Shown in pieces: positions 7,726 to 31,930 of a stretch of DNA of 64,000 bases; position 1 is the stretch's first letter; each line of letters opens with the position of its first letter. Source of the DNA: Deltaproteobacteria bacterium (GTDB lineage: Bacteria; UBA10199; JACPAL01; JAHFST01); contig JAHFST010000003.1 in assembly GCA_023265625.1 (NCBI GenBank), forward strand, positions 168,482 through 232,481, written 5' to 3'. Both the position numbers and the translations under genes were made by a program. The notes beneath the pieces are model-generated. The model did no database searches, was not told the origin of the DNA, and saw nothing but the letters and a program-made list of their open reading frames with translations.

Positions 7726-7754
7726 CGCAACAATTACTAGGGATTGCCGATACT
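7726..7754 (+). promoter_or_regulatory. Sigma-28-like promoter, site A: CGCAACA-N14-CCGATACT, 21 nt upstream of the 7776 ATG
   Basis: Member of the eight-site motif family (see findings); spacer is 14 here, not 16. Confidence 0.45.
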
Positions 7755-7775
7755 CACTATACGAGGAATTGAGCT

Positions 7776-9752
7776 ATGGAATTTTGGGGGTTTGAAAATT
7801 GTGGGCGGTTCGTAGGGGAGGCGTTTGCCACCAATAGAATTGGTGATGTTCCTCGTCCACCAGTGCGAATCGATAAAGTGGGTGGTGGTGTTACACAACA
7901 GCCTCCGACAGTCGGCAAACCTGGGTTTCAATCCGGATTAAATCCAGGGCAGTCCTTACAAAAATTATCTCCAGAACAAGTGGCATTGTTGGGACCGGCA
8001 TTACTTAAAATTCTCCAACCCGGGATCAGTGAAACATTACAGCTTGGCACAAATAACTTAACTGGCTTGTTAGGTTCGCCCGTTTTGTCGGGCGGTACTC
8101 AGGTTGTGAATGTGAGCGAACTGGTGACGCAGGTATTGACCCTTTTGGTTTCAGGCGGAAGTTTCTCAGCTTTAGAACATACGGCAGAACATGCTGCAGT
8201 CGTGACCACAACTCATGAATCACCGACAACATCCCAAGCGGCTCCAGTAACTGCGATGGAACATGCGGTGGCTCTCCTATCTGCTGCGTCCGCTCCGGCA
8301 GCGAATACGAATCAGGAATCGCCAGATATCTCCCAGGGTCATACGGTTGTCTCTCCTGAGCATGCAGAACTTAGCGCTGTTGCCAGTCTCCTGTCGGGAA
8401 TGGCGGCCAATGTGGATGTTGAACAACCCTCTCAATTGCTTTTTGCGTCTCCCATTATGGCCCCTGAGGTTGTGTTGCGCACCCACTTGGAGACCTTGCT
8501 GGGCCTGACCTCGAGTTCCGAGGGGTCACTCTCCGTGGCGTTGGAATTAGTCCAGTTGGCGCAAAGTGTGCGTGCCTTATCGGCCTCCGGAGAATTGTCT
8601 CTCGTGTTGCCCTTATTGGGGCAATGTCAGGACCATGCTGAATTTCAACAGTTGAATACGGTCCTGGCGCGCTTTGTCGGCCTGCGTCCGGGCGGACATT
8701 TTCAGGTGGTGCAGCAATTGATTGAGCAGGCCCCAGAATCGGTGCAAGAATTTTCCCAGTTGGTGGCCCAGGTGGCGGTGAGTGAGACTCAGCCCGCGGC
8801 GCTTGTGGCAGTCAGCGAGTCCCCTTTGACGCTCTTTCACGAGGCTTCGGTTGTTCCGGCTCAGGTGGTGTCAACATCAGCGCTGGTCCCAGCGGCTCCT
8901 CAGGCTCCATCAAAGACTCAGTCATCCACTCGATTGGCCGCAGAGACTTCTTTGGTCCGCCGCGTCGGAGTTCCTCTGGCCGAGTTTTTAACCGCATTAC
9001 CCCGTCTGGGTGTCACCGGGGCAGCTGCCCGTGAAATACGAAGTTTTGTCATGCAATTGTCCTCATCGTCCAAGCAACCGGTTTCAGCCCAACAGATGAC
9101 GCACTTTGTGACCCGATTGTTGACCTTGCCAACGGTGCAAACCAAGCCGATGATTTCGATGTTGTTGAAGGCCTTGTACGATCGTAATCCTAAAACTCGT
9201 TTGTTACTTGTTACCCTGTTGCGAGAATTGGCCAAGAAGGCTGATCTGAAACAATTTGCCATGGAACATGCCGAGACCCTGAAGACCTTGGCCCGCACGC
9301 GCGTTTCTGTTCGCACTCCTGATCCACGTCTGGTCGCCGTGAGAGGCGAGGCCCTGGCCCTGCTCTTGGATATGGGACAGCGCCAAGGGAAGAGTCATGA
9401 GGAGATGTTGGCCTTGTTAAATGATGTTGAATTGGTGCCAACCTTGCACCTTCTGTTGTCGAGTGATTCGACCGAGAATATTTTACAGGGCCTGAAGCTC
9501 CTGACCCAGGCCTGGTCCTTTTTGGAGCCAAAGGTCCAGGAGCGGTTTGCCGGGCAGGTTTTGGGGCTGGCCCTGGAAGATTCGGATGACCGAGTCGTGA
9601 CGGGTTCCCTAGGTACCTTGCTGAACCACTACCGGGATCTGGGTGCGGATGTGCAACGTAAGTTGCTGAAAAGAGAGCTCTATTTAGATTTAATCAGGGC
9701 CAACTCGAATCGTTATAGCCGCGGGGCCAATCACTACGCCCGGGCGAGTTGA
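7776..9752 (+). CDS. MEFWGFE-family protein A (Ala/Ser/Gln-rich, 658 aa)
   Basis: Starts MEFWGFENCGRFVGEAFATN; RBS AGGAA 8 nt upstream; N-terminal 20 aa are homologous to the 29477 gene product. Confidence 0.6.
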   Translation: MEFWGFENCGRFVGEAFATNRIGDVPRPPVRIDKVGGGVTQQPPTVGKPGFQSGLNPGQSLQKLSPEQVALLGPALLKILQPGISETLQLGTNNLTGLLGSPVLSGGTQVVNVSELVTQVLTLLVSGGSFSALEHTAEHAAVVTTTHESPTTSQAAPVTAMEHAVALLSAASAPAANTNQESPDISQGHTVVSPEHAELSAVASLLSGMAANVDVEQPSQLLFASPIMAPEVVLRTHLETLLGLTSSSEGSLSVALELVQLAQSVRALSASGELSLVLPLLGQCQDHAEFQQLNTVLARFVGLRPGGHFQVVQQLIEQAPESVQEFSQLVAQVAVSETQPAALVAVSESPLTLFHEASVVPAQVVSTSALVPAAPQAPSKTQSSTRLAAETSLVRRVGVPLAEFLTALPRLGVTGAAAREIRSFVMQLSSSSKQPVSAQQMTHFVTRLLTLPTVQTKPMISMLLKALYDRNPKTRLLLVTLLRELAKKADLKQFAMEHAETLKTLARTRVSVRTPDPRLVAVRGEALALLLDMGQRQGKSHEEMLALLNDVELVPTLHLLLSSDSTENILQGLKLLTQAWSFLEPKVQERFAGQVLGLALEDSDDRVVTGSLGTLLNHYRDLGADVQRKLLKRELYLDLIRANSNRYSRGANHYARAS

Positions 9753-9789
9753 GAAAAAAATGAAAAAAGTGACGATTTTTAATTTTGTA

Positions 9790-9820
9790 AGCAACAATGG
9801 TTCCCTCGGGGGCCGATACT
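9790..9820 (+). promoter_or_regulatory. Sigma-28-like promoter, site B: AGCAACA-N16-CCGATACT
   Basis: Motif family; 23 nt upstream of the 9844 ATG. Confidence 0.45.
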
Positions 9821-9843
9821 AGATTTATAGGGAAGGGATCTTT

Positions 9844-10152
9844 ATGGCATTAGACAAAGTAAATGGCAGTCGACCGGTAGTTCCAGCGCAAGGGGTGGGT
9901 GTTGCCGCCAAGAAGGAAGTGGCAAAGCGGATTGATGCTTTTGCCCGAGTGGCTGGTGGCAAGGGTCATCTTTTTGCCGGGACATCGGCTGGCGGCATCC
10001 TGGGGCGCAGTCTGGGCAGCTTTGGGCTAAGTGCCAATCCCCGTGCGGCCGCCCTGTTGAATGAGGTGGCGACCAGTGATCTTTCCACCCTCCAGGCCAA
10101 TCGTGCCGGGATTGTGACGGGTATTGAGAATCTAGCCCGGGGGTTATCATGA
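9844..10152 (+). CDS. Hypothetical small protein (102 aa)
   Basis: ORF downstream of promoter site B; 4-nt overlap with the next ORF. Confidence 0.4.
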   Translation: MALDKVNGSRPVVPAQGVGVAAKKEVAKRIDAFARVAGGKGHLFAGTSAGGILGRSLGSFGLSANPRAAALLNEVATSDLSTLQANRAGIVTGIENLARGLS

Positions 10153-10475
10153 TTAACAATATTGCCGATGTGGTGCAAAAGTATCCCAAACTCGATTTTC
10201 TCCTCTCCCCGCAATTCCAGTCTCTTCCCCCGGAGAAGCAGAAGTTTTTGCTCGACTGTGTGGAGGATGCGACCTTTTGGATTGACTTAGAAGGTGAACG
10301 TCATGTCACCGACGGCTTCAAGTTCCTAGCCGCCGCCTACGGCCTGTCCCAGGCCGAACAACAGGCCAACGAGCAAGGCCTGCAAGGCAAAGAGAGATCC
10401 GAATTCCTCCGCCCCATCGAAGAGCTCTATACCCAGTTCAATCCGCATTTTGGGACGGATGCGCCGGTAGAGTAG
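10149..10475 (+). CDS. Hypothetical small acidic protein (108 aa)
   Basis: Translationally coupled to 9844..10152. Confidence 0.4.
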   Translation: MINNIADVVQKYPKLDFLLSPQFQSLPPEKQKFLLDCVEDATFWIDLEGERHVTDGFKFLAAAYGLSQAEQQANEQGLQGKERSEFLRPIEELYTQFNPHFGTDAPVE

Positions 10476-10496: not shown

Positions 10497-10886
10497 TTAG
10501 GAGTTTCCTATCTTTTGCAGGACATCAACCAACTCGGCGGGAAATTCTTTGATCTTGTCAAACACCTGATCAGCTGTGAATTGGTTGTAGGTGTGTGATG
10601 TCAGGTTTCTCCCCTCGAGAAATTCAAACCAGAGGTCGATGTTCGTGGCGTATCCTAGGTCATGGATCGTTCGAATGGCTTGACGTGGGGAGGTTACCTC
10701 GATCCCTTCTCGCTTGGCGATCTTGCGGAAAAATTTCCAGGTTAGTTCGAAGGTGTATTCAAAACGCTGGATGGCAGCGTCCCTCACAATGACCGAGTAG
10801 GGAATCTGAAACAGTTCCTGCAAGGTTTGTAAGGCCTGATTCAGGGTTTGGAGGTGAAGAGCGAGTTCCTGTTTTTCCGTTTCCAT
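10497..10886 (-). CDS. HEPN-type nucleotidyltransferase substrate-binding protein (HI0074-like toxin partner)
   Basis: About 129 aa, helical, ...RFEYTFELTWKFFRK... typical of the NTase_sub_bind family; adjacent to an MNT. Confidence 0.65.
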   Translation of the reverse strand: METEKQELALHLQTLNQALQTLQELFQIPYSVIVRDAAIQRFEYTFELTWKFFRKIAKREGIEVTSPRQAIRTIHDLGYATNIDLWFEFLEGRNLTSHTYNQFTADQVFDKIKEFPAELVDVLQKIGNS

Positions 10887-11191
10887 ATTTTTATGTTTTT
10901 TAGGGCAAGAGCGTTGAACTCCGGGGGTACCTTTCTAAAATCGACCAGATCAACTTTGGCGAGTATGGGCAACTCTTCCAGCGCCTCTTGTAGTTGGGCC
11001 AATTTGGAAGGAGAGGGAGGATGGGCGGTATCATAACCGACGTCGTAATCGGATCGATTAGTCTCCCGATGTTTTGCCCGTGAACCAAAGAGAAATATGT
11101 CGGCCTCACAAGAAGCAAAGGCATCCAGAATCAGGGACTGAACGACCTCATCCCATTTAAAGAATTTTTCATGTTTGGTAGGCTCAGACAT
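10841..11191 (-). CDS. Minimal nucleotidyltransferase (MNT, HI0073-like antitoxin partner)
   Basis: GSRAKHRETNRSDYDVG matches the Pol-beta NTase motif GS-x(9-13)-D-x-D; the likely start is the internal Met MSEPTKHEKFF. Confidence 0.65.
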   Translation of the reverse strand: MSEPTKHEKFFKWDEVVQSLILDAFASCEADIFLFGSRAKHRETNRSDYDVGYDTAHPPSPSKLAQLQEALEELPILAKVDLVDFRKVPPEFNALALKNIKIWKRKNRNSLFTSKP

Positions 11192-11535
11192 TACAAAAAT
11201 AATAGGCCCGTTGGCTTGGGCTGTCAAAGGGAGTTTTTGCCTCGTTTGAAAGTTTGACTTCTCCCAGTAGCGCCCTTATTCTAGCCGTATGCCCATGAAG
11301 ATAGTGACAAAGCGAAAAGGTGAGGAACCTTCGGTGCAAGGGGCAAGGGTCCTGCAAAAAACCATTCATGATCTTCGCGGGTCTTGGCTTGTGCCGAGAG
11401 GCGTTTATAGTTTTTCCAGTTTTCAGGAGGGCTGATCCGCATGAAAAATACCATCAGGCCATCGGCATCATAGGGGAAAGACTCTTTTTTTAGGAGGATT
11501 TTTTCACGGAAATCTTGATTTTGTTCTATCAAGAG

Positions 11536-11625
11536 CCATTGAGGTGCGTTATCCGGATGAAAAAAGGGAGTTGTACTGGAATCGGTGGTTGTGGATTAAG
11601 TACACAATTTTTTGCATTCTACCAC
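11536..11625 (+). pseudogene. Internally deleted remnant of a HEPN-MNT cassette (HEPN 3' end fused directly to the MNT 3' end)
   Basis: 11536-11576 is near-identical to 12993-13032 (HEPN ...RYPDEKRELY); 11577-11625 matches 13385-13436 (MNT ...LESVVVE* plus downstream); about 350 bp of the intact cassette is missing. Confidence 0.55.
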
Positions 11626-11873
11626 TATGAGAAGAATAGGCAAACGATCGAAGTCAAATTCCAAGAAGATCTTCAAGACAAAAACCGCGTCCCGGGTTTT
11701 GGAGGATGCTGTCAGCTTTCACGGGGCCATGGTAGAGGTCAGCGTTCATAATGCCTACAAGTCAAGCTTGTTCGGAGGAGGGTCTCCCATTACGGTCGCC
11801 GCTGAGAGGAGTGTTACTCTGCGGGATTCGAATTTGACGAGAACCATCAATTCTTGGGCCTCACAATTTTGAG

Positions 11874-12665
11874 ATGAGTTTCCTGGTTATGACCCTGCCA
11901 AAAGACATCATGATTGACAATCCCGGACTCGGAGCATGGTCGATCCTCGTTGCCTACCGCGGATCGATCGCCCATGGGATGTTTGTTCCCAGTACGGATC
12001 CTCACTCTATTGATGACAGGGATGTCATGGCCGTTTGCATCCCGCCCGTCGATTACTATTTTGGACTCAAAGAGTTCGGTTCGCGAGGGACTCAGGAAAT
12101 CAAGAAGGGGGAATGGGATATCGTCGTTTATGAGATCAAGAAATTCATCCGACTCCTGGCGAAAGGGAATCCCAATGTCCTGTCAATGCTCTGGCTCAAA
12201 CCAGATCACTACCTCAAATTGACGGAGATCGGCCGTCGTCTGATTGATCACAAACATTTATTTGTTGGGAGGCATGTTTACCACAGCTTTTCCGGATATG
12301 CCCAATCTCAGCTCCACCGGATGACGCATATGGCCTTTCAAGGTTACATGGGTGAGAAGAGAAAGAGACTTGTGCAAAAGTTCGGTTATGACACTAAGAA
12401 TGCCGCCCATCTGATCCGGCTCCTCCGGATGGCCGTTGAATTTCTCGCGGAAGGGGTCCTCCATGTGGAAAGAGAAGATGCTCCCCAGCTTTTGGAAATC
12501 AAGCGCGGAGAGTGGAAGTTGGAGCAAGTGAAAACCGAAGCTGAACGGTTGTTTATGCTTGTTCAAGAAGCTTATATCCAGTCTGCGCTTCCGCTGGAAC
12601 CGGATATGGAGAAAATCAACAAGCTTTGTGTGGAAATGATAGAAATGAGAGCGGAATTTTTCTAG
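11874..12665 (+). CDS. Predicted nucleotidyltransferase (Pol-beta superfamily, RlaP/PF10127-like)
   Basis: RGSIAHGMFVPSTDPHSIDDRDV fits GS-x(n)-D-x-D; 263 aa. Confidence 0.45.
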   Translation: MSFLVMTLPKDIMIDNPGLGAWSILVAYRGSIAHGMFVPSTDPHSIDDRDVMAVCIPPVDYYFGLKEFGSRGTQEIKKGEWDIVVYEIKKFIRLLAKGNPNVLSMLWLKPDHYLKLTEIGRRLIDHKHLFVGRHVYHSFSGYAQSQLHRMTHMAFQGYMGEKRKRLVQKFGYDTKNAAHLIRLLRMAVEFLAEGVLHVEREDAPQLLEIKRGEWKLEQVKTEAERLFMLVQEAYIQSALPLEPDMEKINKLCVEMIEMRAEFF

Positions 12666-12717
12666 AAAAACCTCGAGCTTCTTGCCTTCCTGACACGATT
12701 TGATATGCTGAAGATCC

Positions 12718-13113
12718 ATGACGGTTCAGGACCTACAACAACTATTGGCTTATTGGCGTGAAGGTTCTGATTATGATTGGGGAACCGCTCAATCCCTATT
12801 GCGAGCGAAGCGCTATCCCTATGCCCTGTTTATGGGGCATCTTTCGTTGGAAAAATTGCTCAAGGGTTTGATCGTGAAAGAGACGAGAGACCACGCCCCG
12901 TTTACACACAATCTGGCCTATCTGGCGGGTAAGTTGCCCTTTGAATTCTCCAAAGAGCGGATCGTCTTTTTGGAGGAGATCAATAGTTTCAATATTGAGG
13001 CGCGTTATCCGGATGAAAAAAGGGAGTTGTACAAGCGGGCCACCAAAGAATTTACCAGGCGGATGATGAAAGAAATAGGGCTGGTGCGATTATGGCTGAT
13101 AAAAAAATATTAA
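12718..13113 (+). CDS. HEPN domain protein (toxin partner of the downstream MNT)
   Basis: 131 aa; ...NIEARYPDEKRELY... is the conserved HEPN R-x(4-6)-H-like region; 22-nt overlap with the MNT gene. Confidence 0.65.
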   Translation: MTVQDLQQLLAYWREGSDYDWGTAQSLLRAKRYPYALFMGHLSLEKLLKGLIVKETRDHAPFTHNLAYLAGKLPFEFSKERIVFLEEINSFNIEARYPDEKRELYKRATKEFTRRMMKEIGLVRLWLIKKY

Positions 13114-13409
13114 AAAAATTGAAAAAATTTAAGGGGCTTTTGCAAAAAGCGGGGGTTCCTGTTTACAAGCTGATCCTCTTTGGTTCTCAAGCCCGAGACA
13201 CGGCCAGACCGGATAGTGATATTGATGTCTGTGTGATCTCTCCCGCCTTAGGTAAGGACCGTCTCAAAGAACGACTTTTTCTGGCCCAACAGGCCCATAC
13301 CATTGATCCGCGTATTGAAGTGGTGGGCTATTCCAAAAAAGACTTTATGCACAATCGTGTCTCGCCTCTGCTCCATCAAATTCGCCTGGAATCGGTGGTT
13401 GTGGAATAA
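13092..13409 (+). CDS. Minimal nucleotidyltransferase (MNT antitoxin)
   Basis: LFGSQARDTARPDSDIDVCV is a classic GS-x(n)-D-x-D NTase motif. Confidence 0.75.
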   Translation: MADKKILKKLKKFKGLLQKAGVPVYKLILFGSQARDTARPDSDIDVCVISPALGKDRLKERLFLAQQAHTIDPRIEVVGYSKKDFMHNRVSPLLHQIRLESVVVE

Positions 13410-14561
13410 TTACACAATCTTTTTCACCCTACCACAGAGTTGCTGGAGAAATACCTCGACCGGGAGACAGAGGATTTCTTTTTGCAACAGGCGTTCTTGT
13501 CCTCGGTAGAGCAAGATGGCTTGGCATTCCGGGTATTCTTGTCGAAATGAGGTGAGCCCCCTGAGATCCTCCGGACGGACGCGCGGGGTGCTCTTGACTT
13601 CTATCGCCCAAAAAATATCGTTGCCATAGATGACAAAATCAACCTCCGTTTGGGCTTGAGTTCGCCAAAAGTACAGTTGATGATCGTCCGCAAAATAAGC
13701 CAGCCAGGCACGTAACTGTTGTGCGACTAGTCCTTCGAGGGCGGCCCCTTCAATCATGCCGGGTCGGTCGAGGGGGCCATGGGGGCGCAGCGATTGATAG
13801 ACACCGGTGTCGAAAAGATAAAATTTGGAGTGGGAGATCACGGCACGCTGACTCCTCTTCGCAAACACCGGTACGCGAAAGGCGAGCAGGAGATCTTCTA
13901 AAATGGTGATATAATTTGTCACCACCTTTCTTTCGACCTCGCATTCCCGGGCGACGTTATTGATATTGAGCACTTCTCCGTGTGAAAAACTGATGGCCTC
14001 GAGGAAGCGTGAAAAGTTTCCCACGTTTCTGACCAAGCCCTCCATTTGAACATCTTCACGCACGTAGAGGGCGACGTAACTCTTCAAAACCTCCGCTGGT
14101 TCGGGGGCGGCCATGACGATTGGGAGTAGTCCGGTTTGTAAAGCTTGTGTTAGCTGAAATTGGGCGCCTAACTCAGCGGCGGCGAAGGGGTGGAGCGTTT
14201 TTAACAGGGCTCGCCCCGCCAACAGATCGACCCCCGTTTTTTTAAGTTTTCGTGCGCTCGACCCGGTTAAGATGAATTTCAACCCCCGTTTTTCTTCAAT
14301 GAGTTGATGAACCACGTCGAGCAGTGCTGGGACCTTCTGAACTTCGTCAATGAGGATGACTTGTTCCGATTGGCCGAATATCGCTTCGCGGAGCCGTTCC
14401 GGTCTGGCGCTGTAGACCCGGTCCGTCTCAGGATCCAGGAGGTCAATGCGGAGGGCCGTAGGAAATTGGTATCGCACCCAGGTCGATTTGCCACTCCCCC
14501 GTGGGCCAAACAAAAAGAAGCTCATCTTCGGATCTTGTAAAAAACGATGTATTGATTCCAT
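13410..14561 (-). CDS. AAA+ ATPase of the AAA_14/DUF4143 family
   Basis: Walker A FGPRGSGKST, Walker B ILIDEVQ, then a long DUF4143-like C-terminal region; 383 aa. Confidence 0.8.
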   Translation of the reverse strand: MESIHRFLQDPKMSFFLFGPRGSGKSTWVRYQFPTALRIDLLDPETDRVYSARPERLREAIFGQSEQVILIDEVQKVPALLDVVHQLIEEKRGLKFILTGSSARKLKKTGVDLLAGRALLKTLHPFAAAELGAQFQLTQALQTGLLPIVMAAPEPAEVLKSYVALYVREDVQMEGLVRNVGNFSRFLEAISFSHGEVLNINNVARECEVERKVVTNYITILEDLLLAFRVPVFAKRSQRAVISHSKFYLFDTGVYQSLRPHGPLDRPGMIEGAALEGLVAQQLRAWLAYFADDHQLYFWRTQAQTEVDFVIYGNDIFWAIEVKSTPRVRPEDLRGLTSFRQEYPECQAILLYRGQERLLQKEILCLPVEVFLQQLCGRVKKIV

Positions 14562-14676: not shown

Positions 14677-14707
14677 CACAACATTGCCCCAGGGGTTTTC
14701 CGATAAG
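14677..14707 (+). promoter_or_regulatory. Sigma-28-like promoter, site C: CACAACA-N16-CCGATAAG
   Basis: Motif family; 31 nt upstream of the 14739 ATG. Confidence 0.4.
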
Positions 14708-23121: not shown

Positions 23122-25500
23122 ATGGGCGACAATGACGATTACCTCAATAGCGGTCGAACGGCTCTTTATCCAAATCTAGACCATCAAGAATTCGGGTCCA
23201 GGACTCCCTTGGATGTGGACGGGTACGAACCATGTTTGGCTGATGACACCGGTTATGAAAAGCTCCGGCACGTGGTGATAAACCAGGGAGAGCAGGCGGT
23301 CCAATTCTTGAAACCTGGCAAGGCCTTGGAGGCTGGACAGGCGGATCCGACTCATGCTCAGATGCCGGACCTGATTTATTCCACCGATGCGTTTACGCTG
23401 ACCCGGAAATATCCCAATGGTGCCACGGAATCCAAGACCCAATTGGGGACCTGTCATGTGGAAAATCGGTTGTTTGTGTATGCACGACATCCCATCTTGA
23501 GCAAGATTTGTCCCGACCCTGGAAAGATGGCCGTCTCCAATTACCAGTCAGTGGCGGGATCACAAGGCCTCGGCCCCGGGGAAGTTGTTAAGCTGGCTTC
23601 AGCCCTGGTTGGTTCTGCCGATCCCTCCCAATCGAGCTTATTTTGCGTGACTGAGCCGGATCCGAATCGGGGGATGAAGAGGGATTTTCAGTTCGAGAAG
23701 CCGAGTTTGACCAATATCAAGACCTACCTGGACTTTCTGAAGAAGCTCAGATCCGAGCAAGCCGATGTGGCGCTCATCAATGGGTTTGAAAATTTCATCA
23801 GCCCTACAAAGCTCCAATACGATCAGATGGATGAAAATACGGGTTGGCCAGGATGGTTCAAGATGTTGGTTAGTACTGTGGCAGGAGCGGTTATTGGCAC
23901 TGGTCTTTGGTTTCTCTTCATGTGGTTGAAAGAAAAGAAGAGCAATCCGTTTGATAATAAAATTTTCTTGGAGAAAACGGTGACAGACAAGGCTCAGGGT
24001 TTCAAGGGGGTGCAGTGCAAGGCCCCCGAGTCAGTGCATAAATATGTGCGTGACATGGTGGACGTCTTTCGAGTCAAACGGGGGCTACGCCGGCTTGGCC
24101 CGACAGGAACTAACAAAGGCTACAGTATTGACATGCTCATTTGCGCGATCGTGAACAACCAATTGAAAGAATTGGATTCTGAGGTGGCAAAAAAATTACC
24201 TCCCAATACACAGATTAAATCGATGTCATCCATGAATTTGAAGGGCGGTGCGGGGTCGTGGAAAGATAGAAAGGCCACGATTCAGGCGGAAGTGTTGAAT
24301 TTGGGGGCAAACGGACCACTCCTTCTCATCCTAGAGGAGGCCGATGCCTTTCTCGAAAAAAATGCCCATGGAGAAATAGACCAAGAAGCCTTGGAATTTT
24401 TCAGGAATCTCTTGACGCCTCTTGACCCCGAGACCTCGAACCCAGCCTACAAGAATATTTTTATCATCATCGATACGAGTAGGCCCCATGAGGAGGATTT
24501 CACTCAACATCTTCCGGATATCTTTCGCAGGACCTCAATCGTTGAAAGTATTCCTCCTGTGGTTGAGGATTTGGATGATTTCCTTAGGTCACGCATTGAG
24601 AGGAAGTTGGACGATGGGTTTACAACCCTAAAGGGGAAGGTTAATTTCACAGATAGCGCCATTCGTGCGCTGTCCGTATTGGGTATCGATTCTAAAGAAG
24701 GTTCGCCTCCCTCCTGCAATGGCAACATGTTGGATTTTTTTCTGGCTTATTTGGTAAAAAACGGAATTTCGGGGCAAGTAGATGAAGGAAAAGTCGTTGA
24801 CTTTATCGTCTTTCGATCTAAAAAAATAACAACCCCCGAAGTTCGCGCACTGCTTGATCAAGCCAAGCGAGATCCCCGATTTTTACAAGATCGTATTAAC
24901 CAGGCGTTTTATGCGGCTTATCAACCGGTTCAGGGGCGTGTGGACCCGCTTAGGACCGGTACCGCCGCGCCTTCGAACCTATCTGAGGTTGCCACTGCCG
25001 AGGAAAAGGTCGACCCCGAAGCCGAACAATACGCCCTCACCACTCTCCTCTATTTGGCCATCGCCGAGAGTGATCCCACTTATTCGAGGTTGGGCCATGA
25101 TGAGAAAGAGACTCGTTTTAGCAACACCGTGGGGCTCCTCCGGCACGACGGGGCCTTGAATCCTGGCCAAGAGGACTACGCGGTTCGGGTGTCGGTCCAG
25201 TTGGCCCTGAGGGATCGGGTGACAGGGTTTGATCAATTGCCACAATCCCTGAAACAATCCCTCTTTCAACGCTCCTATGATTCCTGGAGCGGCCCAAGCA
25301 ACATCCTGGTGCGCCGTCCCGGCAGTTTCAAACTCAAGGGCGGGGATGGGGTGACCTTGATGATCGAGGCCCATGTCGACAAGGTGGTTAAGGAACGAAA
25401 GATTGAGATCGAGGCCCAGGCCGGTGGGGTCCGCTATGACCTCTTGGAGCCCGCGCAGGCCAAGCAACAACGCGCACTGCGCAGAAAATTTGGTCTCTGA
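23122..25500 (+). CDS. Protein J: paralogue of F (conserved N-terminal domain) with a degenerate ClpB-like AAA+ module
   Basis: MGDNDDYLNSGRTALYPNLDHQEFG is about 80% identical to F over 145 aa; P-loop is degenerate (GPTGTNKG); LLLILEEADAFL is Walker-B-like. The true start is taken as 23122, not the listed 23092, which would overlap the promoter. Confidence 0.55.
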   Translation: MGDNDDYLNSGRTALYPNLDHQEFGSRTPLDVDGYEPCLADDTGYEKLRHVVINQGEQAVQFLKPGKALEAGQADPTHAQMPDLIYSTDAFTLTRKYPNGATESKTQLGTCHVENRLFVYARHPILSKICPDPGKMAVSNYQSVAGSQGLGPGEVVKLASALVGSADPSQSSLFCVTEPDPNRGMKRDFQFEKPSLTNIKTYLDFLKKLRSEQADVALINGFENFISPTKLQYDQMDENTGWPGWFKMLVSTVAGAVIGTGLWFLFMWLKEKKSNPFDNKIFLEKTVTDKAQGFKGVQCKAPESVHKYVRDMVDVFRVKRGLRRLGPTGTNKGYSIDMLICAIVNNQLKELDSEVAKKLPPNTQIKSMSSMNLKGGAGSWKDRKATIQAEVLNLGANGPLLLILEEADAFLEKNAHGEIDQEALEFFRNLLTPLDPETSNPAYKNIFIIIDTSRPHEEDFTQHLPDIFRRTSIVESIPPVVEDLDDFLRSRIERKLDDGFTTLKGKVNFTDSAIRALSVLGIDSKEGSPPSCNGNMLDFFLAYLVKNGISGQVDEGKVVDFIVFRSKKITTPEVRALLDQAKRDPRFLQDRINQAFYAAYQPVQGRVDPLRTGTAAPSNLSEVATAEEKVDPEAEQYALTTLLYLAIAESDPTYSRLGHDEKETRFSNTVGLLRHDGALNPGQEDYAVRVSVQLALRDRVTGFDQLPQSLKQSLFQRSYDSWSGPSNILVRRPGSFKLKGGDGVTLMIEAHVDKVVKERKIEIEAQAGGVRYDLLEPAQAKQQRALRRKFGL

Positions 25501-25507
25501 TGGAGGA

Positions 25508-26677
25508 ATGATGGGAATTGGAAACACAGCGATATCTATCATTGGGAATCTAGGATTTACCAAGGGGCCTAATTACACCGAGCTTCTGGAGAAGAAAGGC
25601 ATTTCACTTGCCTTACAAAGCTATGTGAAAACTCAGGGAGTGAAGCCGGAACAATTTGCCCAATTCATTGTATGGGCTGGGGAGCGAGACAAGACACCGG
25701 AACTCCTGGACCAGTTTCTCAAGGGGCAGAACAAGGGACAAGAGATCCAGGCGGGTGTTTATCGGACATTGCATCTTGGGACCGATGGTTTTTTGCAGGA
25801 TGGTGATTATTCAGGTCATGCCGTCGCGCAGTGTGAGGCCCCGCAGTTCAAGGAATTGTCGGGGATATGGAACCCCGATCAGGTTGCCGAACTTTGCCGC
25901 TACTTGGGTGTGACGGAACCTGCAAATTGTTTCTTAAGTCTCAATGCGGCGCAAGCAGGAAAGGTTTGTTTTGAGGCCAATCAACCGGGCAGAAATCGCG
26001 AGGTGCTGGAGCGGGTGGATGGTTTTATGTGGTCTCACGGCGATTGCCCCTTCGATTGGAGTCACTGTGATGCGATCCAAGATGCGGAACAAGAGGCCTT
26101 GGGGGTCAAAGATTTTTTGCAGAGAATTTGGGAGGATCTTCCTGGAACTCTGCTGACTGTGGTTGGCTTTGGTTTGTTGGGGTGGTGGTTTAAGGATCGA
26201 TTGCCTCCTTCTGGGAGAGGGGGCGGAGGGGAGGGTGGCGGCAATAAAGAGGGGCCACCCAAGGGCCCAAGTCCTGAGCCAATTTTCATTCCGCACCTAC
26301 TGCCTGCCCCGAAACCCATCACGAACCCAAGTCGATTGTTACCCGAACATTCTGGTGGTTCTTCGGCGGATGTTGATACGAAGGCGCTGTTCGAGACGGG
26401 TATTATCGTTGCCACGATGGCAACCGCTTACAAGGTTTATCAGGCGGCGGCGGGGGGTGCCACGATTCGTGTCGCGAGTGGATTGCCTGGAATGGCCAAG
26501 GTTGCCGGACTCGTGATGGTGGCGGGCTTGTCACTGTTTGGCGGCTCACGGGAGGCGGCTGCGGCCGAATTGCCGCAGGAGCCAGGATACCTGCTTGGGA
26601 ACCACCCCGAAGGGGTCAAGGTACCAGTGATTAGACCTATGAGTCATAATCCCTTTTCTGATGTCCTGGGAAAATGA
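25508..26677 (+). CDS. Protein K: paralogue of G by C-terminus (...MAKVAGLVMVAGLSLFGG...HNPFSDVLGK), different N-terminal domain
   Basis: C-terminal module conserved with G at protein and DNA level (about 75% nt identity); start placed 8 nt after the J stop. Confidence 0.5.
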   Translation: MMGIGNTAISIIGNLGFTKGPNYTELLEKKGISLALQSYVKTQGVKPEQFAQFIVWAGERDKTPELLDQFLKGQNKGQEIQAGVYRTLHLGTDGFLQDGDYSGHAVAQCEAPQFKELSGIWNPDQVAELCRYLGVTEPANCFLSLNAAQAGKVCFEANQPGRNREVLERVDGFMWSHGDCPFDWSHCDAIQDAEQEALGVKDFLQRIWEDLPGTLLTVVGFGLLGWWFKDRLPPSGRGGGGEGGGNKEGPPKGPSPEPIFIPHLLPAPKPITNPSRLLPEHSGGSSADVDTKALFETGIIVATMATAYKVYQAAAGGATIRVASGLPGMAKVAGLVMVAGLSLFGGSREAAAAELPQEPGYLLGNHPEGVKVPVIRPMSHNPFSDVLGK

Positions 26678-26752: not shown

Positions 26753-27907
26753 TTAGCCTCCGGTAATTTTGGTCCAATGTTTGTGTTGCAGTGGGTCTGA
26801 CAACGCGGGGCGTTCACTCGGAGTGACGGCCAACAGGGTGACTTTTTTATCGGAAAGGTCTTGAAAACGGAGCAGATTGCGCACGTGGTCCAAGGTCACG
26901 GTATGGGTTAGTTTGATTTCGATGGCCTGGAGGTGTTCCCCCTGGTCGACCAGCAGATCCACTTCCAGGCCGTCATGGGATCGCCAAAAGTAGAGCGGTG
27001 CTTGGCGAGCCTGGTTGAGGTGGGCCTTGCGAAATTCCTGAATGATGAAATTCTCAAAGAGAGGTCCGGCCATCGGTCCCGAGATGAGGGTTTCCGGTGA
27101 TCTGATCTTTAAAAGGTGGCAGGCCAGGCCGGTGTCCACAAAATAGATCTTGGGCGAGCGGACGACCCGTTTGCCAAAATTTTGAAAGTAGGGTGGCAGT
27201 AGATAAATGACAAAGGCGGCTTCCAGTGCGGAAATCCACTCCTTGATCGTGGGCGATTTTACCCCCACTTCTGCGGCCAGTTTATGCATGTTGAGTTCCT
27301 GCCCGATACGGGCCGCCAACAGCTGCAGGAGGGCCTCAAAGCTGCGCAGATCCCGGATGGCGATTTGCGAGCGGAGGTCTCGCTCCAGGTAGGTGTTGAT
27401 GTAGGAGGAAAACCAGAGATCCAGGTTCAAATCGGGCGTGGTTTGCAGCTGTGGGTACATGCCGCGCAACAAGAGGTTGGCGAGATCCGGTTGTGTGTGC
27501 GGGGCGATTTCCGGCCAAGAGAAGGGGAGCAACTGAAAGATGGCGACCCGGCCCGAGAGGCTTTCCGTGACCCCCTGCATCAGATGAAACTGATGGGAAC
27601 CGGTGAGCACGACCTGGCCGGGGGTCTTATTACGGTCGACGAATTCCTTGACGTAAGGCAGCAGCCCCGGGGCTTCTTGGATTTCGTCGATGAGCAACCC
27701 GGGAGCCGAGTCGACAAAAAAAGCACGCGGATCCCGCTCCGCCCGCTGTCGCACATCCAGGGCATCCAGCGTGACATAGCGGTGGTGAGGGAAGGTGTGG
27801 CGGAGTAACTCCGTCTTACCAGTCTGCCTGGGACCAGTCGCCAACAGGACGGGGAAGTGCCGGCTGGCCTCTTTGATAGGATCTGACAGATTTCTTTTCC
27901 AATACAT
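26753..27907 (-). CDS. AAA+ ATPase of the AAA_14/DUF4143 family (second copy)
   Basis: Walker A LATGPRQTGKTEL, Walker B LLIDEIQ, DUF4143-like C-terminal region; 384 aa. Confidence 0.8.
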   Translation of the reverse strand: MYWKRNLSDPIKEASRHFPVLLATGPRQTGKTELLRHTFPHHRYVTLDALDVRQRAERDPRAFFVDSAPGLLIDEIQEAPGLLPYVKEFVDRNKTPGQVVLTGSHQFHLMQGVTESLSGRVAIFQLLPFSWPEIAPHTQPDLANLLLRGMYPQLQTTPDLNLDLWFSSYINTYLERDLRSQIAIRDLRSFEALLQLLAARIGQELNMHKLAAEVGVKSPTIKEWISALEAAFVIYLLPPYFQNFGKRVVRSPKIYFVDTGLACHLLKIRSPETLISGPMAGPLFENFIIQEFRKAHLNQARQAPLYFWRSHDGLEVDLLVDQGEHLQAIEIKLTHTVTLDHVRNLLRFQDLSDKKVTLLAVTPSERPALSDPLQHKHWTKITGG

Positions 27908-28001: not shown

Positions 28002-28032
28002 CGCAACTCTACCCCCCGGGCGTGACGATAAT
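28002..28032 (+). promoter_or_regulatory. Sigma-28-like promoter, site G: CGCAACT-N16-ACGATAAT
   Basis: Motif family; 20 nt upstream of the 28053 ATG. Confidence 0.4.
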
Positions 28033-28052
28033 CCACTCAAGAGGAGATGTGT

Positions 28053-29462
28053 ATGGGTGATGGTGTTGATAAATGTAAGGTGACCATAGCTTTTCAGGGA
28101 GATATCGGTCTCAAAGCAGACGACATTGCAAGGCTCAACAATGATTCTTCAGGAGGGGTTCATTTTGGTTTAGAGAAAGATGGCAAGTTTCTAACCGTTG
28201 AAGGTATTGAATGCGACAATAATGCTGATTTGTCCCAAGAAGAATACAACAATGTCGTGAATGCGTTGCCTCCGGACATGAGGAAAAAGACGATTGTCTA
28301 CTTACAGGGGGGCAGAAAGGGCCAGTCTGATTTTGAGTTCAATGGGCAAAATAGAGGTCAGAAAAATGCTTTGAAGGAGTTTCGTGAGAAATTCAGTTCA
28401 GGAGATAGCGCAGCTGGAGTGACAGGAACGGCAAAACGATTCCTGGATAAGAGCGGGCTAAAATTAGGTGAGAAAATTGATACCCCCAAAAAGGCATGGA
28501 CCCATGCCTTCTACGATTCGACGAATGATACGTTAAATCAAATGACCGATCAGTTGTTCGGGGCGGCGCAGGTCTTGTCTGGAGATCCCAAATATACGGC
28601 GTTTGCAGGGATGGATAAAGATATTAAAGTGACCAAGTCGGGACAAGAGACCCTGTTTGATTACAAAGGGATCGTGGCCGGTTTTACGAAGATCAAGGAT
28701 TGTGCCATCGATATGCCGGATATTTCCCCGGAAAAGTTGCAGGAGATCACCAAGTTTTTTGAGGCCGCCAAGCGGACTGATAAGAGCGGCAACCCAACCT
28801 TGCTCAACAACTGGCTCGACCTGGCCAAGGATATTACCGATGCGAACGATCCGATGGTGAATCAGAAGGATCCGACCGGTAAGGGGAAGGTTGTTCGAGG
28901 GGATCTGGATCGTACCAAGTTTTCCAGCAATGAAATCCGCTGGTTGGCCAAACGGTGGTATGGCGACAAATACACGGGTTCTGCCGAGCAGATCCGCCAG
29001 ACGGCCAGGAGTGTCATGCTCTTTTTTGGCATTGTGGATTTTCATGCCAAGATGAAGGCAAGTGCAGGGGTTGTGAGTCTGAAATATAAGGATCCTAAAT
29101 TTCAGGATGCTAAATATGGGTTTAATTTTCACGTTGAGAAGAAGGATGGGAAGATTCTTGTGACAGATATTAGACCTGATAAAGATGATAAAAAGGACGC
29201 AGATTTGATGGCGAGCAATGAAATCGCGCTTAACCATCGGAAAATTTTACAGCATCTCATTGACGAGGATTCATTAATTATTGAAGCGGATGCAGCAGAT
29301 CGCGGCCTATTGTTCGAGGCCTTGGGACTGGATGGGGATGGAAAGATTAAGAAAGCACAACCTAAAAAGGCGACACAAAATGACGAGGAAACGGATACTG
29401 ACAATCCGTTTCAGGCTTGGTGGGCTAAATTTAACGATGCCTCAAGCGCCGCAGTCGAATGA
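28053..29462 (+). CDS. Hypothetical protein M (Lys/Asp-rich, about 469 aa)
   Basis: The start is probably MGDGVDK at 28053 (RBS GAGGAG 6 nt upstream), not the listed 28047; lower GC than surroundings. Confidence 0.5.
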   Translation: MGDGVDKCKVTIAFQGDIGLKADDIARLNNDSSGGVHFGLEKDGKFLTVEGIECDNNADLSQEEYNNVVNALPPDMRKKTIVYLQGGRKGQSDFEFNGQNRGQKNALKEFREKFSSGDSAAGVTGTAKRFLDKSGLKLGEKIDTPKKAWTHAFYDSTNDTLNQMTDQLFGAAQVLSGDPKYTAFAGMDKDIKVTKSGQETLFDYKGIVAGFTKIKDCAIDMPDISPEKLQEITKFFEAAKRTDKSGNPTLLNNWLDLAKDITDANDPMVNQKDPTGKGKVVRGDLDRTKFSSNEIRWLAKRWYGDKYTGSAEQIRQTARSVMLFFGIVDFHAKMKASAGVVSLKYKDPKFQDAKYGFNFHVEKKDGKILVTDIRPDKDDKKDADLMASNEIALNHRKILQHLIDEDSLIIEADAADRGLLFEALGLDGDGKIKKAQPKKATQNDEETDTDNPFQAWWAKFNDASSAAVE

Positions 29463-29476
29463 GAGGGTAAGTAAAA

Positions 29477-30565
29477 ATGGACTTTTACGGATTTGAAAAT
29501 CGCGAGACCTTTGTGGATGAGGCGTTTGCTACTAATATTCCTCCAGGTGACAGAAGTAATAATGGGAGGAGTCTACCCAAAGTTGGCGGCAAAGGGGGCG
29601 GTGGCGCCAAGGGTGCCGATGACCTTCCAGTCCCACACCGGGTCGATCTCGACAGCAACCGAAAAATTGATAAAGACGACGCCCCAGCACAGGTAGGCGC
29701 CGATATTGGCAAGGTTTACGAGGGACGGTTGTTCATCGATAAGATCGATCCCACCTTGCACAAGCGTGGTATCACTTCTCCCAACGGCCTTTGGTCCGGG
29801 ACTCCTCCCACCAAGGGGAAGGATGGGAAGGCGGTTCCCATTTGGGAATATCGGGGGCAATATGTGGAAGCGGATGGCAAGGCTGGGATCACTTGCAAGG
29901 CGGAACTGGAGTCTTTCAAAGAAAACATTCGAGGGACCGAGGCGGGGGTGGAGCTCGATAAGTTGCATGCCAGCACGGCCGACAACCCCGATTGGCGCGT
30001 GGTTTGGAATAGTGGGGATGTCGAGAAGCCAGAAAACATCGCCTGGGGAGAAGTGCTCCCAGATCCCGCCAAAGATACCGCCGACGGCGCCGGCAACACC
30101 TTCGGCCTGAGCGATTTCAAGACCCTCCTCGCCAAACTTCGCGGCAAGATCGCCGAGGCCGCCAAGGAGATTGAGAATCTTATTCAGCAGGTCCTGGCAG
30201 GCAATCCGGATGCGGTGAAGCAGTTGATTCGCCAGCTGGCCTTTGTCGGGTCGCTCTCCAAAAACGTGGCGGCGGCCTTGGTGGGGCAGATCAATATCCA
30301 GCTTCAGAAAGAAGAAGAAAAAATCAGCAAGGAAACTCAGACTATCACAGGTCAGACACCGGGTAACAAGGATGTGGCCGGTTACAACGCCAAGAATGCC
30401 AAATTGGAAGAGTTGCGCAGTTGCCGGGCGGCCCTCCAGTCGCTGAGGGAAACCGTCGCCAACTATCTACGCGACATCGCCTCGGGCGAGCAATACATCG
30501 ACAACCTGGGCAGCATCGTGACCGAGATGAACCGGCACGAGGTTGAGCAGTCGCGGTATTCCTAA
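29477..30565 (+). CDS. MEFWGFE-family protein N (starts MDFYGFENRETFVDEAFATN)
   Basis: N-terminal 20 aa are homologous to protein A (7776); coiled-coil-rich C-terminal half. Confidence 0.55.
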   Translation: MDFYGFENRETFVDEAFATNIPPGDRSNNGRSLPKVGGKGGGGAKGADDLPVPHRVDLDSNRKIDKDDAPAQVGADIGKVYEGRLFIDKIDPTLHKRGITSPNGLWSGTPPTKGKDGKAVPIWEYRGQYVEADGKAGITCKAELESFKENIRGTEAGVELDKLHASTADNPDWRVVWNSGDVEKPENIAWGEVLPDPAKDTADGAGNTFGLSDFKTLLAKLRGKIAEAAKEIENLIQQVLAGNPDAVKQLIRQLAFVGSLSKNVAAALVGQINIQLQKEEEKISKETQTITGQTPGNKDVAGYNAKNAKLEELRSCRAALQSLRETVANYLRDIASGEQYIDNLGSIVTEMNRHEVEQSRYS

Positions 30566-30616: not shown

Positions 30617-30925
30617 ATGGAAATCGAAGCAATCCGTCAAAAGTGGAAAATTGGCCAGTGGGAAATATCGGCACACGCTCGAAAACGTATGGGGCAGCGT
30701 CAAATTACAGTGGATGAGCTGGGACAAGTCATTATGGAGGGTGAGATTATTGAAAATTATCCAGACGATAAACCCTATCCTTCCTGTTTGATATTGGGTA
30801 AAATGAGCAATAGCTTTCCATTGTATGTGGTTTGTGCCTTGGGGGATGGTGTCCATGTCATCACGGCACACTGGTTAGATCCGGAAAAATGGTTGGATCC
30901 GAAGACGAGGAGGGAAAAGACATGA
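30617..30925 (+). CDS. DUF4258-like toxin-type protein
   Basis: ...EISAHARKRMGQRQITVDEL... is typical of DUF4258; ATGA overlap with the downstream zinc-finger gene. Confidence 0.55.
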   Translation: MEIEAIRQKWKIGQWEISAHARKRMGQRQITVDELGQVIMEGEIIENYPDDKPYPSCLILGKMSNSFPLYVVCALGDGVHVITAHWLDPEKWLDPKTRREKT

Positions 30926-31179
30926 CGAGCAAAAAATCTTGCAAATGCGCTTGTTGTGGAGGGAGATTGATAGAGAAATTGGTGCGGCATGATCAGCATT
31001 GGGGGGAACAGATTGTGGTTTTTGAGGATGTGCCGGCACGCGTTTGTCTCTCCTGCGGCGAAACATGGTTAAGCGCGAAGGTTGTGCAAAAGATGGATAA
31101 GATTCTTTCTCAGCAGCGGAAGCCGACGAAGAAGATGACGGTCCCTGTCTGGTCTTTTTCAGCCGTACGGGCGGCATGA
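30922..31179 (+). CDS. YgiT/MqsA-type zinc-finger protein (antitoxin-like partner)
   Basis: CKCACCGG...RVCLSCGETW gives two CxxC pairs typical of zf-YgiT; the listed ORF 30832 is longer, but the start ATG at 30922 overlaps the upstream stop. Confidence 0.55.
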   Translation: MTSKKSCKCACCGGRLIEKLVRHDQHWGEQIVVFEDVPARVCLSCGETWLSAKVVQKMDKILSQQRKPTKKMTVPVWSFSAVRAA

Positions 31180-31326
31180 ACTCCATGCGCTAACGCATTT
31201 TTTTTTGGCCGGAAAGCAACTCGTCATCCCTCATGGGTCGATGATGAGTCCAAGGGATGGAAAAACGTCGCCTGGGGACAAAAAAATTGACCCGGCCGAC
31301 TGTTCCGTTTATCCTCCGGAGGCTTT

Positions 31327-31776
31327 ATGGACAAAAAAGAAAAAATCGAGAACAGTACTCAGGCTGAAGCCGATCACTACAATGGGATCTTGCTTGAGGA
31401 TATGCGGTCGCAGATACAGTTGGTCATAGAAAAGGTCATGGGTTCTGAGGAGTCGTTAAGAGGCGAGATGCAGTTGATGCGGACCGATTTTGAGGGACGA
31501 TTCCAAGGGCTTGAAGCCTTGATCAAGATGAATTCTGACGATATCAAGACAAATTCTGAGGAAATTCATGGACATAGCAAGATACTCGCATCACATAGTA
31601 AGATACTCGAATCGCATAGCAAGATACTTGCATCACATAGCACGGTACTCGAATCACATACTAAAACCCTTGACGAGCATAGCCGGAGCCTAGATCGCAT
31701 TGAGACCAAGTTGGACCGTCTGGTGGACAAGGTCGAAAAGCATGACCAGGCCCTCCATCAGATGGGTGCCCTGTAG
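31327..31776 (+). CDS. Small coiled-coil protein with tandem heptad repeats (HSKILAS/HSKILES x5)
   Basis: 149 aa; encoded by 21-bp tandem repeats at 31573-31677. Confidence 0.45.
   Translation: MDKKEKIENSTQAEADHYNGILLEDMRSQIQLVIEKVMGSEESLRGEMQLMRTDFEGRFQGLEALIKMNSDDIKTNSEEIHGHSKILASHSKILESHSKILASHSTVLESHTKTLDEHSRSLDRIETKLDRLVDKVEKHDQALHQMGAL
31573..31677 (+). repeat. Five tandem 21-bp repeats (CATAGCAAGATACTCGCATCA-like)
   Basis: Direct inspection: catagcaagatactcgcatca / catagtaagatactcgaatcg / catagcaagatacttgcatca / catagcacggtactcgaatca / catactaaaacccttgacgag. Confidence 0.8.
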
Positions 31777-31796
31777 GGGCGACCCGGTGGGTCGCC
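31774..31796. repeat. Partial REP family 1 unit GTAGGGGCGACCCGGTGGGTCGCC; its TAG is the stop codon of 31327..31776
   Basis: Left arm GTAGGGGC plus the inner palindrome GCGACCC-GGTGGGTCGC; right arm incomplete. Confidence 0.5.
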
Positions 31797-31899
31797 TGCT
31801 TTTAGCCCCTTCTTTAAGTTCGGCATTTTTAATTATAACTACTTATAATTATTAAGTTTTTTAATAAAACACATCCCCCTCAAATATTTCTTAAAATTA

Positions 31900-31930
31900 G
31901 ACAACTCGCGCCCCCCTCCCCCCCGATAAT
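31900..31930 (+). promoter_or_regulatory. Sigma-28-like promoter, site H: GACAACT-N16-CCGATAAT (weaker -35)
   Basis: Motif family; 39 nt upstream of the 31970 ATG. Confidence 0.4.

Follow-up and report, generated by a model that had tools for sequence, protein, structure and literature searches.

The question raised by this locus is what reads a short, two-block motif that recurs in front of genes of no known family, downstream of a set of type III export genes, in a 64,000-nucleotide (nt) stretch from a Deltaproteobacteria bacterium (contig JAHFST010000003.1; hereafter the window). The original prediction described eight copies of this motif, a CGCAACA-like -35 block followed by the -10 block CCGATAAT, and tied the genes behind them into a single regulon beside flagellar fliMNOPQR, under a FliA-family sigma factor with altered -35 specificity. 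We have examined the window together with its upstream neighbour, contig L002, about 76 kilobases (kb) of the source genome, and have compared both with related loci. [quoted passage not shown] The proposal of a single regulon under a re-tuned sigma factor is therefore supported by comparative evidence, namely the nearby sigma gene, the syntenic co-occurrence of gene and motif and the residue pattern of the protein, while its flagellar setting is not.

Recurrence and layout of the motif

All eight sites are found on the plus strand of the window, starting at positions 7726, 9790, 14677, 15222, 20607, 23085, 28002 and 31900, and the spacer is 16 nt in seven of them and 14 nt at site 7726, as had been described. 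Every site is intergenic, and the -10 block ends 6-44 nt before a start codon, in agreement with the predicted 6-45 nt. Chance had been called an implausible source of these copies, and our counts bear this out. When at most one mismatch is allowed, a degenerate site pattern matches 8 times, where 100 shuffles of the window lead one to expect 0.05, and exact CCGATAAT occurs 10 times in the window against 1.9 expected. Furthermore, a position weight matrix (PWM) trained only on 107 distinct sites from unrelated loci (L008-L069), none of them from the window, retrieves exactly these eight sites at 18-26 bits, and adds a ninth at 61358-61387 on the plus strand with 20.9 bits. For the window as a whole, 10 PWM matches of at least 14 bits compare with 0.62 expected from 100 first-order Markov simulations. 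The eight sites first listed are thus real, but the regulon appears to be larger, since besides the ninth site two further copies of the motif lie in L002 inside the secretion locus, one before a gene for a protein of 166 amino acids (aa) and one just after sctJ.

No site is found by the PWM scan in the housekeeping region at 42-57 kb of the window, where a conserved stress/starvation module, the trio of prkA, DUF444 (yeaH-like) and spoVR-like genes at 47057-51738, likewise carries no promoter of this type. A weak antisense match, GGCAACT-N16-CCGATAAT (57485-57515, minus strand, 17.2 bits), lies inside a small plus-strand open reading frame (ORF) at 57418-57660; it could be a chance match or an antisense promoter.

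The consensus of the 107 sites, aaGCAACTTt ... gCCGATAATa, has the canonical sigma-28 spacing as its dominant spacing, and thus a -10 block of the GCCGATAA type at the sigma-28 distance from the -35 block. The -35 block is not TAAA: none of the eight sites matches the canonical TAAA-N15-GCCGATAA even when two mismatches are allowed. The original prediction had read both blocks in the same way. A scan of the window for generic sigma-70 promoters and terminators gave background levels, and an Rfam scan of the window gave zero matches. The 25 nt 5' of each site contain 60-84% A+T, against a window average of 48%.

Repeats of this kind might also mark the ends of mobile gene cassettes, or serve for recombination, in an island that is plastic and rich in toxin-antitoxin genes. 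Such genes, together with others of defence type, do interrupt the island on both strands, and the gene content of the island varies between relatives. However, what the sites have in common is limited to the two short blocks at sigma-type spacing, while spacers and flanks are unrelated, and no inverted or direct repeats surround the sites. The motif also stands at fixed positions in the conserved, cassette-free secretion locus. In addition, all 137 sites from a regular-expression search that have a downstream ORF of at least 60 codons in a 150-nt search window point to a start codon no more than 100 nt away. An origin of the repeats as cassette boundaries is, in our view, scarcely credible, and promoters remain by far the better description of the sites.

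The layout of the sites also bears on translation. Before genes I and J, exactly 6 nt separate CCGATAAT from the start codon (window 20637-20646 and 23115-23124). In sigma-28 promoters the -10 element ends at position -8 (PMC12784957), and the predicted +1 of sites 20607 and 23085 is therefore the A of the ATG. The start codon of gene J is fixed by homology to gene F from residue 1, and no ribosome-binding site lies ahead of it. Genes I and J would thus be expressed from predicted leaderless mRNAs without a ribosome-binding site.

The secretion locus and its sigma factor

A look-up of the FliN-like protein led to contig L002, whose last 3520 nt are 100% identical to window positions 1-3520, and L002 is therefore the upstream continuation of the window. 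The gene order in L002 is a 166-aa protein, an LcrH/SycD-like TPR chaperone, a 318-aa SctJ lipoprotein, two small genes and a 276-aa sigma factor, followed by a 161-aa protein, a weakly FliG-like protein, SctL, SctN, SctO, a SctP-like protein and the FliM-like gene that opens the window. The export apparatus continues in the window at 9-3497 on the plus strand with the remainder of this FliM-like gene (partial), a FliN/SctQ-like gene, a FliO-like gene, SctR, SctS and SctT, as assigned with Pfam and NCBIfam.

The sites could be ordinary flagellar class-3 promoters under a canonical FliA if these genes were indeed the flagellar fliMNOPQR of the original prediction. Pfam names the first genes of the window FliM, FliN, FliO, FliP, FliQ and FliR, and the -10 block and spacing of the sites fit the sigma-28 consensus. 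The NCBIfam scores point in another direction. The export-gate protein passes the SctR cutoff (243.7 against 208.6) and fails that of FliP (202.8 against 217.45), the place of FliF is taken by the SctJ lipoprotein (TIGR02544, 5e-40, versus 3e-11 for fliF), and SctL and SctQ are the top-scoring families for the FliH-like and FliN-like proteins. The locus does include FliO-like and FliM-like genes, with scores under their cutoffs. No rod, hook, motor or flagellin genes are found in the 76 kb examined, and no secretin is seen there. Moreover, the locus is syntenic with the T3SS* cluster of the non-motile Myxococcus, and the -35 block is GCAAC rather than the TAAA of flagellar promoters. A flagellar role of the promoters is thus very unlikely. 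Judged by gene content and family scores, the locus is a non-flagellar T3SS of the Myxococcus T3SS* kind, and because the machine is non-flagellar, its promoters front genes without flagellar homology. The LcrH/SycD-like chaperones hint at translocator-like cargo. The 166-aa protein of the first operon (L002 251-751) ends in ...LSNVLQSKHQTEINAVRNMRVG, and its C-terminal tail resembles by eye that of needle subunits, such as ...SNTVKVFKDIDAAIIQNFR; it was considered as a needle subunit, for which a PDB sequence search gave no support.

The sigma gene lies 4958-5788 nt upstream of the window start, between sctJ and sctL in the same gene cluster. The best family of its product is TIGR02479 FliA_WhiG (E = 9e-43, 146.6 bits), and SigB/F/G comes second at 90.5 bits. 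The protein aligns to positions 1-222 of the 224 positions of the TIGR02479 model and contains Pfam regions r2 and r4, which is the architecture of group-3 sigma factors. Among solved structures, those of Streptomyces WhiG and of E. coli FliA come nearest to it, and these PDB alignments run end to end. The sigma family is large and well conserved: among the best 120 matches listed, identity to the query is 60-87% (100% in its own cluster), and most of these come from metagenome-assembled genomes (MAGs) labelled Deltaproteobacteria or UBA10199. The original prediction had suggested a look for fliA paralogues and flgM. A FliA/WhiG-like gene is present here, but no FlgM-type anti-sigma match in Pfam or NCBIfam is on record among the locus genes. 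The small conserved 134-aa and 117-aa genes beside the sigma gene are candidates for an anti-sigma factor.

The residues that read promoter DNA are informative about both blocks of the motif. In E. coli FliA, D81 and R84 read the -10/extended -10 element. D107, R110 and R117 of the sigma factor align with D81, R84 and R91 of E. coli FliA and are invariant in 36 family members, and in the segment aligned to FliA LDELRSRDWVPR the invariant residues are D107, R110, W114, P116 and R117. This invariant -10-reading segment fits the retained CCGATAA block. In the open complex of Pseudomonas sigma-28, GCCGATAA forms the -10 element and occupies -15 to -8, and TCTAAAG forms the -35 element, spanning -36 to -30; R97 reads the extended -10 element, and the two region 4.2 residues S224 and Q228 touch the bases at -36 and -35 (PMC12784957). 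The corresponding region 4.2 helix of the family studied here is SKSW(T/A/V)SRLH, versus ESRVSQLH in FliA, and it is invariant from this lineage to the Myxococcaceae and one Schekmanbacteria MAG. It differs from the FliA-type helix ESR(V/I)SQ(L/I)H in that Q228 is replaced by R and R225 by W, while the serine is kept. On the Pseudomonas numbering, the window sites carry G at -36, where sigma-28 promoters carry T. This suggests that the change from Q to R at the -36-contacting residue is paired with the change from T to G in the promoter. In the Myxococcaceae, the W-x-P-R segment is missing from the sigma factors and the sites have no CC ahead of CGATAA, a second and weaker co-variation.

Motif and sigma factor across genomes

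Species-representative genomes were scanned with the sigma family alignment, which gave 80 loci. A simple pattern search of these loci finds 141 sites, and 126 of these share the strand of the secretion locus. For 62 related loci that total 901 kb, all of this lineage, the PWM gives 120 matches on the secretion-locus strand and 10 on the opposite one. These matches recur at particular places: 39 of 39 loci have one ahead of the first operon, 42 of 46 have one in the stretch from sctJ to the sigma gene and 13 of 31 have one within 1.5 kb after sctT. The sole distant relative of gene F sits in a syntenic contig from another sample, which carries five intergenic sites, one per unknown gene. Even in the Archangium and Myxococcaceae loci, where the sigma factor is just 41-43% identical, the motif occurs at equivalent places, and at the two equivalent positions of the Myxococcaceae loci it takes the form GCAACTC-N15-CGATAA(C/T). 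This co-occurrence, together with the residue patterns described above, suggests that the motif pairs with the neighbouring sigma factor.

It must also be asked whether the motif is read by a regulator encoded elsewhere, either an extracytoplasmic function (ECF) sigma factor of the HrpL/BtrS type or an activator with two half-sites, so that the sigma gene nearby would be a coincidence. The -35 block holds the AAC typical of ECF promoters, other type III secretion systems use ECF sigma factors, and the pairing of sigma factor and promoter is deduced rather than direct. Against this, the -10 block CCGATAAT is of the sigma-28 type and not of the ECF CGT type, the motif follows the sigma family through all 80 loci, including the lineages of low sigma identity, and no further regulator is conserved in all loci. 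The sigma factor itself covers nearly the whole FliA/WhiG model and is therefore not a two-domain ECF protein; its -10-reading residues resemble those of FliA, and the conservation of its -35 helix is unique. A reader encoded elsewhere is thus unlikely, and the sigma factor of the secretion locus remains the preferred one.

HrpL of Pseudomonas syringae and Erwinia and BtrS of Bordetella are two-domain ECF sigma factors with boxes of the GGAACC-N15/16-CCACNNA type. As in the HrpL/hrp box and BtrS/BtrA systems, a dedicated alternative sigma factor is encoded here with a non-flagellar type III system and scattered putative effector genes are joined by a promoter box. In contrast to those systems, the sigma factor is a 276-aa group-3 relative of FliA and the -10 block is CCGATAAT, not CCACNNA. 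The FliA/FlgM system of E. coli, Salmonella and Pseudomonas is alike in having a group-3 sigma factor of the same family, a (C)CGATAA -10 block with the same spacing and the same -10-contacting residues, and FliA drives late exported substrates and chaperones of a type III export machine, as the present sigma factor would do. It is unlike the present system in its -35 element (TAAA/TCTAAAG versus GCAAC(T/A) here) and its helix (ESRVSQ versus SKSWTSR here), and the present sigma factor scores below the family cutoff. Here, moreover, the machine is non-flagellar and no FlgM-like partner was found in the locus.

The locus also resembles the T3SS* of Myxococcus xanthus (mxan_2434-2464), a "needleless" system that is needed for prey lysis (PMC12075869). 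In the study of Abby and Rocha 2012 (PMC3459982) this system forms the "Myxo" branch, which is basal among non-flagellar type III systems. Neither paper mentions the sigma factor. The two systems have in common a small protein, a TPR chaperone, a sigma factor, SctI-like, SctJ, SctL, N, O and P, FliM-like and FliN-like proteins and SctR, S and T, and by tblastn synteny the gene order including the sigma gene matches the Archangium and Myxococcaceae loci, where the motif is also found. In M. xanthus DK1622, MXAN_2434 is listed as hypothetical, MXAN_2435 as a TPR protein, followed by MXAN_2436, MXAN_2437 as a sigma-70 family sigma factor of 278 aa, MXAN_2438, MXAN_2439 as YscJ family and MXAN_2442 as sctN (PMC9548883 supplement), so that the sigma gene MXAN_2437 stands at the matching position. 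The list of genes up-regulated when M. xanthus is co-cultured with prey includes MXAN_2434, 2435, 2438, 2455 and 2458, but not sctN (PMC9548883 supplement). The first three of these are orthologues of the genes after the motif in the Archangium loci. Up-regulation without sctN would fit a separate substrate regulon, with the motif in M. xanthus itself presumed from its relatives. The two systems differ in several respects besides the low sigma identity. In the Myxococcaceae, the spacer of the sites is shorter by 2 bp and CGATAA is not preceded by CC, the sigma factor has no W-x-P-R and its gene has no sigma-54 promoter. M. xanthus SigF was considered as the sigma factor of the cluster and rejected, as SigF is MXAN_0785 and lies elsewhere in the genome. 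A literature search for MXAN_2437, for type III secretion in UBA10199 and for Myxococcus T3SS with FliA found no description of the sigma factor or its box.

How is the sigma gene itself controlled? A sigma-54 type -24/-12 promoter, TGGCATAAGACCTGCA, is located at L002 3068-3083, 45 nt before the sigma start codon and about 5.85 kb upstream of the window start. Of 60 loci of this lineage, about 48 carry the pattern TGGCA(C/T)-N7-TGCA no more than 150 nt from the start codon of the sigma gene; it is absent before the sigma gene in the Myxococcaceae loci. A sub-clade without this promoter shows a GCAAC/CGATAA copy directed away from the sigma gene (L016 ~630, L018 ~9549, L020 ~9850 and L034 ~5709, minus strand), and 3' of that outward-facing copy a conserved stretch, AAGTGCACAAGTGGTGC, which on the other strand resembles a degenerate -24/-12 element. 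In the window, the minus strand at 37908-41557 encodes a sigma-54 activator whose input domain is of the FHA type and, after it, a PEGA Ser/Thr kinase (Pfam and NCBIfam). Full-length homologues of this FHA activator (37908-39305) divergently adjoin the sigma gene in five other loci, which makes the activator and kinase candidate upstream regulators. Thus a sigma-54 step appears to precede the FliA-like sigma factor; the promoter is shown by its conservation, and the activator is a putative one. A hierarchy from sigma-54 to sigma-28 is known for the flagella of Vibrio, Pseudomonas and Campylobacter. The present cascade resembles it in the sigma-54 promoter ahead of a FliA-like gene and an export apparatus, after which a second sigma factor would drive exported proteins. 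It differs in serving a non-flagellar secretion system, and its activator is so far a candidate.

Island genes, proposed mechanism and meaning

The island downstream of sctT comprises the genes behind the eight promoters, all on the plus strand. Promoter 1 (7726-7754, CGCAACA-N14-CCGATACT, 18.2 bits) lies 21 nt 5' of the ATG of gene A (7776-9752, 658 aa, N-terminus MEFWGFE) and belongs to the class with a spacer 2 bp shorter, which makes up 12 of the 107 sites in other loci. Promoter 2 (9790-9820, AGCAACA-N16-CCGATACT, 22.4 bits) fronts a pair of small genes (9844-10475) for proteins of 102 aa (isoelectric point, pI, 10.9) and 108 aa (pI 4.6), and promoter 3 (14677-14707, CACAACA-N16-CCGATAAG, 22.3 bits) an acidic 144-aa gene (14739-15173, predicted pI 4.4). 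Gene F (993 aa) and its 350-aa partner (15297-19354) follow promoter 4 (15222-15252, CGCAACA-N16-CCGATAAT, 22.0 bits). Promoters 5 (20607-20637) and 6 (23085-23115), both CGCAACA-N16-CCGATAAT, stand 6 nt before the ATG of gene I (20644-23079, 811 aa, N-terminus MGDPNP) and of gene J (792 aa), respectively; J is followed by a partner of about 390-434 aa whose C-terminus matches that of F's partner (23122-26677 for the two). The top PWM score, 26.3 bits, belongs to promoter 7 (28002-28032, CGCAACT-N16-ACGATAAT), which fronts gene M (471 aa, N-terminus MCMGDG) and a gene for a 362-aa protein with the N-terminus MDFYGFE and a shared C-terminal helical domain (28047-30565 together). Promoter 8 (31900-31930, GACAACT-N16-CCGATAAT, 20.2 bits) precedes gene Q (517 aa, containing MEFWGFE and a glycine-rich stretch) and a gene for a 617-aa protein with the N-terminus MELWGYE (31952-35393), and probably serves the entire stretch 31952-37808. 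The island is closed at 35487-37808 by two LcrH/SycD-like TPR chaperone genes (220 aa and 181 aa) around a 322-aa unknown gene; both chaperones align to nearly the complete TIGR02552 model (E = 6e-24 and 7e-18), below its curated cutoff. Promoter 9 (CGCAACT-N15-GCGATAAG) lies 24 kb beyond the island, 50 nt 5' of a plus-strand lipoprotein gene (61438-64000) with the lipobox LVQTAC, more than 850 aa and cysteine-rich repeats DGNACT..D.C..G.C, which runs past the window end and for which no family was found.

Gene A, the small gene pair, the acidic gene and gene I belong to no known family, and Pfam and NCBIfam scans of the large regulon proteins gave no family at useful thresholds. PDB sequence searches with F, A and M found nothing, and among 5.8 billion proteins the relatives of gene F are only itself, its paralogue J and one relative of 37% identity. 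J is 72% identical to F across the first 138 aa, and both have the N-terminus MGDGDNYLNSGRT. A second paralogous group is defined by the N-termini MEFWGFE/MDFYGFE/MELWGYE in the genes at 7776, 29477, 31952 and 33540. The module M[DE][FL]WGFE..PG.GFGL[FL] is kept at the very start of otherwise divergent proteins, in the window at 7776, 29477, 31970 and 33540 and in many metagenomic relatives, and may be an export or chaperone-binding signal. Q and the genes at 33540 and 29477 also share a C-terminal domain of about 170 aa, which has no Pfam family and forms 94 clusters among 1.84 billion representative proteins; the N-terminal module opens many of the proteins with this domain. AlphaFold2 predicts the domain of Q, from a 50-sequence alignment, as three long helices (predicted local distance difference test, pLDDT, about 90), and Foldseek with this model returned generic coiled coils only, with E above 0.1. 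In a PDB search, residues 410-474 of gene I (window 21871-22065) match weakly, at E = 0.009, the U-box of CHIP, a eukaryotic E3 ligase. Pfam does not support this match; if real, it would point to a eukaryotic target. The island is broken up at 10497-14561, 19360-20350, 26753-27907 and 30617-31179 by HEPN/nucleotidyltransferase pairs, a PIN-like/DUF433-like pair with an XRE-like gene, two DUF4143 AAA ATPases, an RlaP-family nucleotidyltransferase and a small toxin-antitoxin-like pair. Pfam backs RlaP, the two DUF4143 ATPases and the pair at 10497-11227 (NTase_sub_bind/Polbeta), and the other labels were given by eye from N-termini. Many of these interrupting genes are on the opposite strand, suggesting a plastic, often rearranged region.

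Since two LcrH/SycD-like chaperone genes close the island, its gene products are plausibly secretion substrates, and the promoter that they have in common with the secretion-locus operons and the analogy with flagellar class 3 point the same way. Several observations nevertheless weigh against the explanation as a whole. The spacer of site 7726 is 2 bp shorter than in the other sites. The 146.6 bits of the sigma factor are below the curated NCBI cutoff for FliA/WhiG of 189.6 bits, and no anti-sigma factor has been identified. The positional counts in the 62 loci were obtained with a matrix trained on the same loci, so that they describe positional clustering and not independent detection, an issue from which the window result is free. 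Finally, the case for secretion is made by neighbourhood, chaperone-like genes and analogy, and the fold search returned coiled coils of a generic kind.

The mechanism that we propose would begin with the sigma-54 promoter, which would turn on the sigma gene with the help of the enhancer-binding activator that such promoters require, possibly the FHA activator and kinase pair. The export-apparatus genes after the sigma gene, through sctT, would be co-transcribed with it, as their order suggests. The sigma factor would then guide RNA polymerase to GCAAC(T/A)-N16-CCGATAAT, reading the -10 block as FliA does and the -35 block with its changed region 4.2 helix. This would drive two operons in the secretion locus, one with the small protein, TPR chaperone and sctJ and one with the small genes after sctJ, as well as the lineage-specific genes of the variable island and, further away, at least the gene behind 61358. 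These genes would encode the substrates or effectors of the machine, together with helper proteins. Taken further, the deepest lineage of non-flagellar T3SS may have kept the flagellar tiers of sigma-54, FliA-like sigma factor and export, with its -35 recognition re-tuned away from flagellar promoters. The box would then label cargo, including the prey-lysis effectors of Myxococcus, part of it with the conserved N-terminal module and some of it made from leaderless mRNAs. We put forward this combined picture tentatively and with somewhat less than even confidence.

What would such a system mean? For sigma factor biology, it would be a natural specificity switch in which -10 reading is unchanged and the -35 helix is re-tuned with a matching promoter change. 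For evolution, it would add regulatory evidence for the origin of injectisome-type systems from the flagellum, as the basal branch keeps a FliA relative and, in this lineage, the sigma-54 step. A defined export signal in M[DE][FL]WGFE..PG.GFGL[FL], if it is one, would be unusual for type III secretion. If the explanation is true, the GCAAC-N16-CCGATAAT box is a cargo label that can be read from genomes, also for the Myxococcus T3SS* effectors in prey lysis, and a dedicated sigma factor with so sharp a box would reduce the search for Myxococcus-type cargo to a genome scan and one knockout (MXAN_2437). For the uncultured lineage studied here, it would mark a large and fast-evolving set of unknown proteins as probable secreted effectors.

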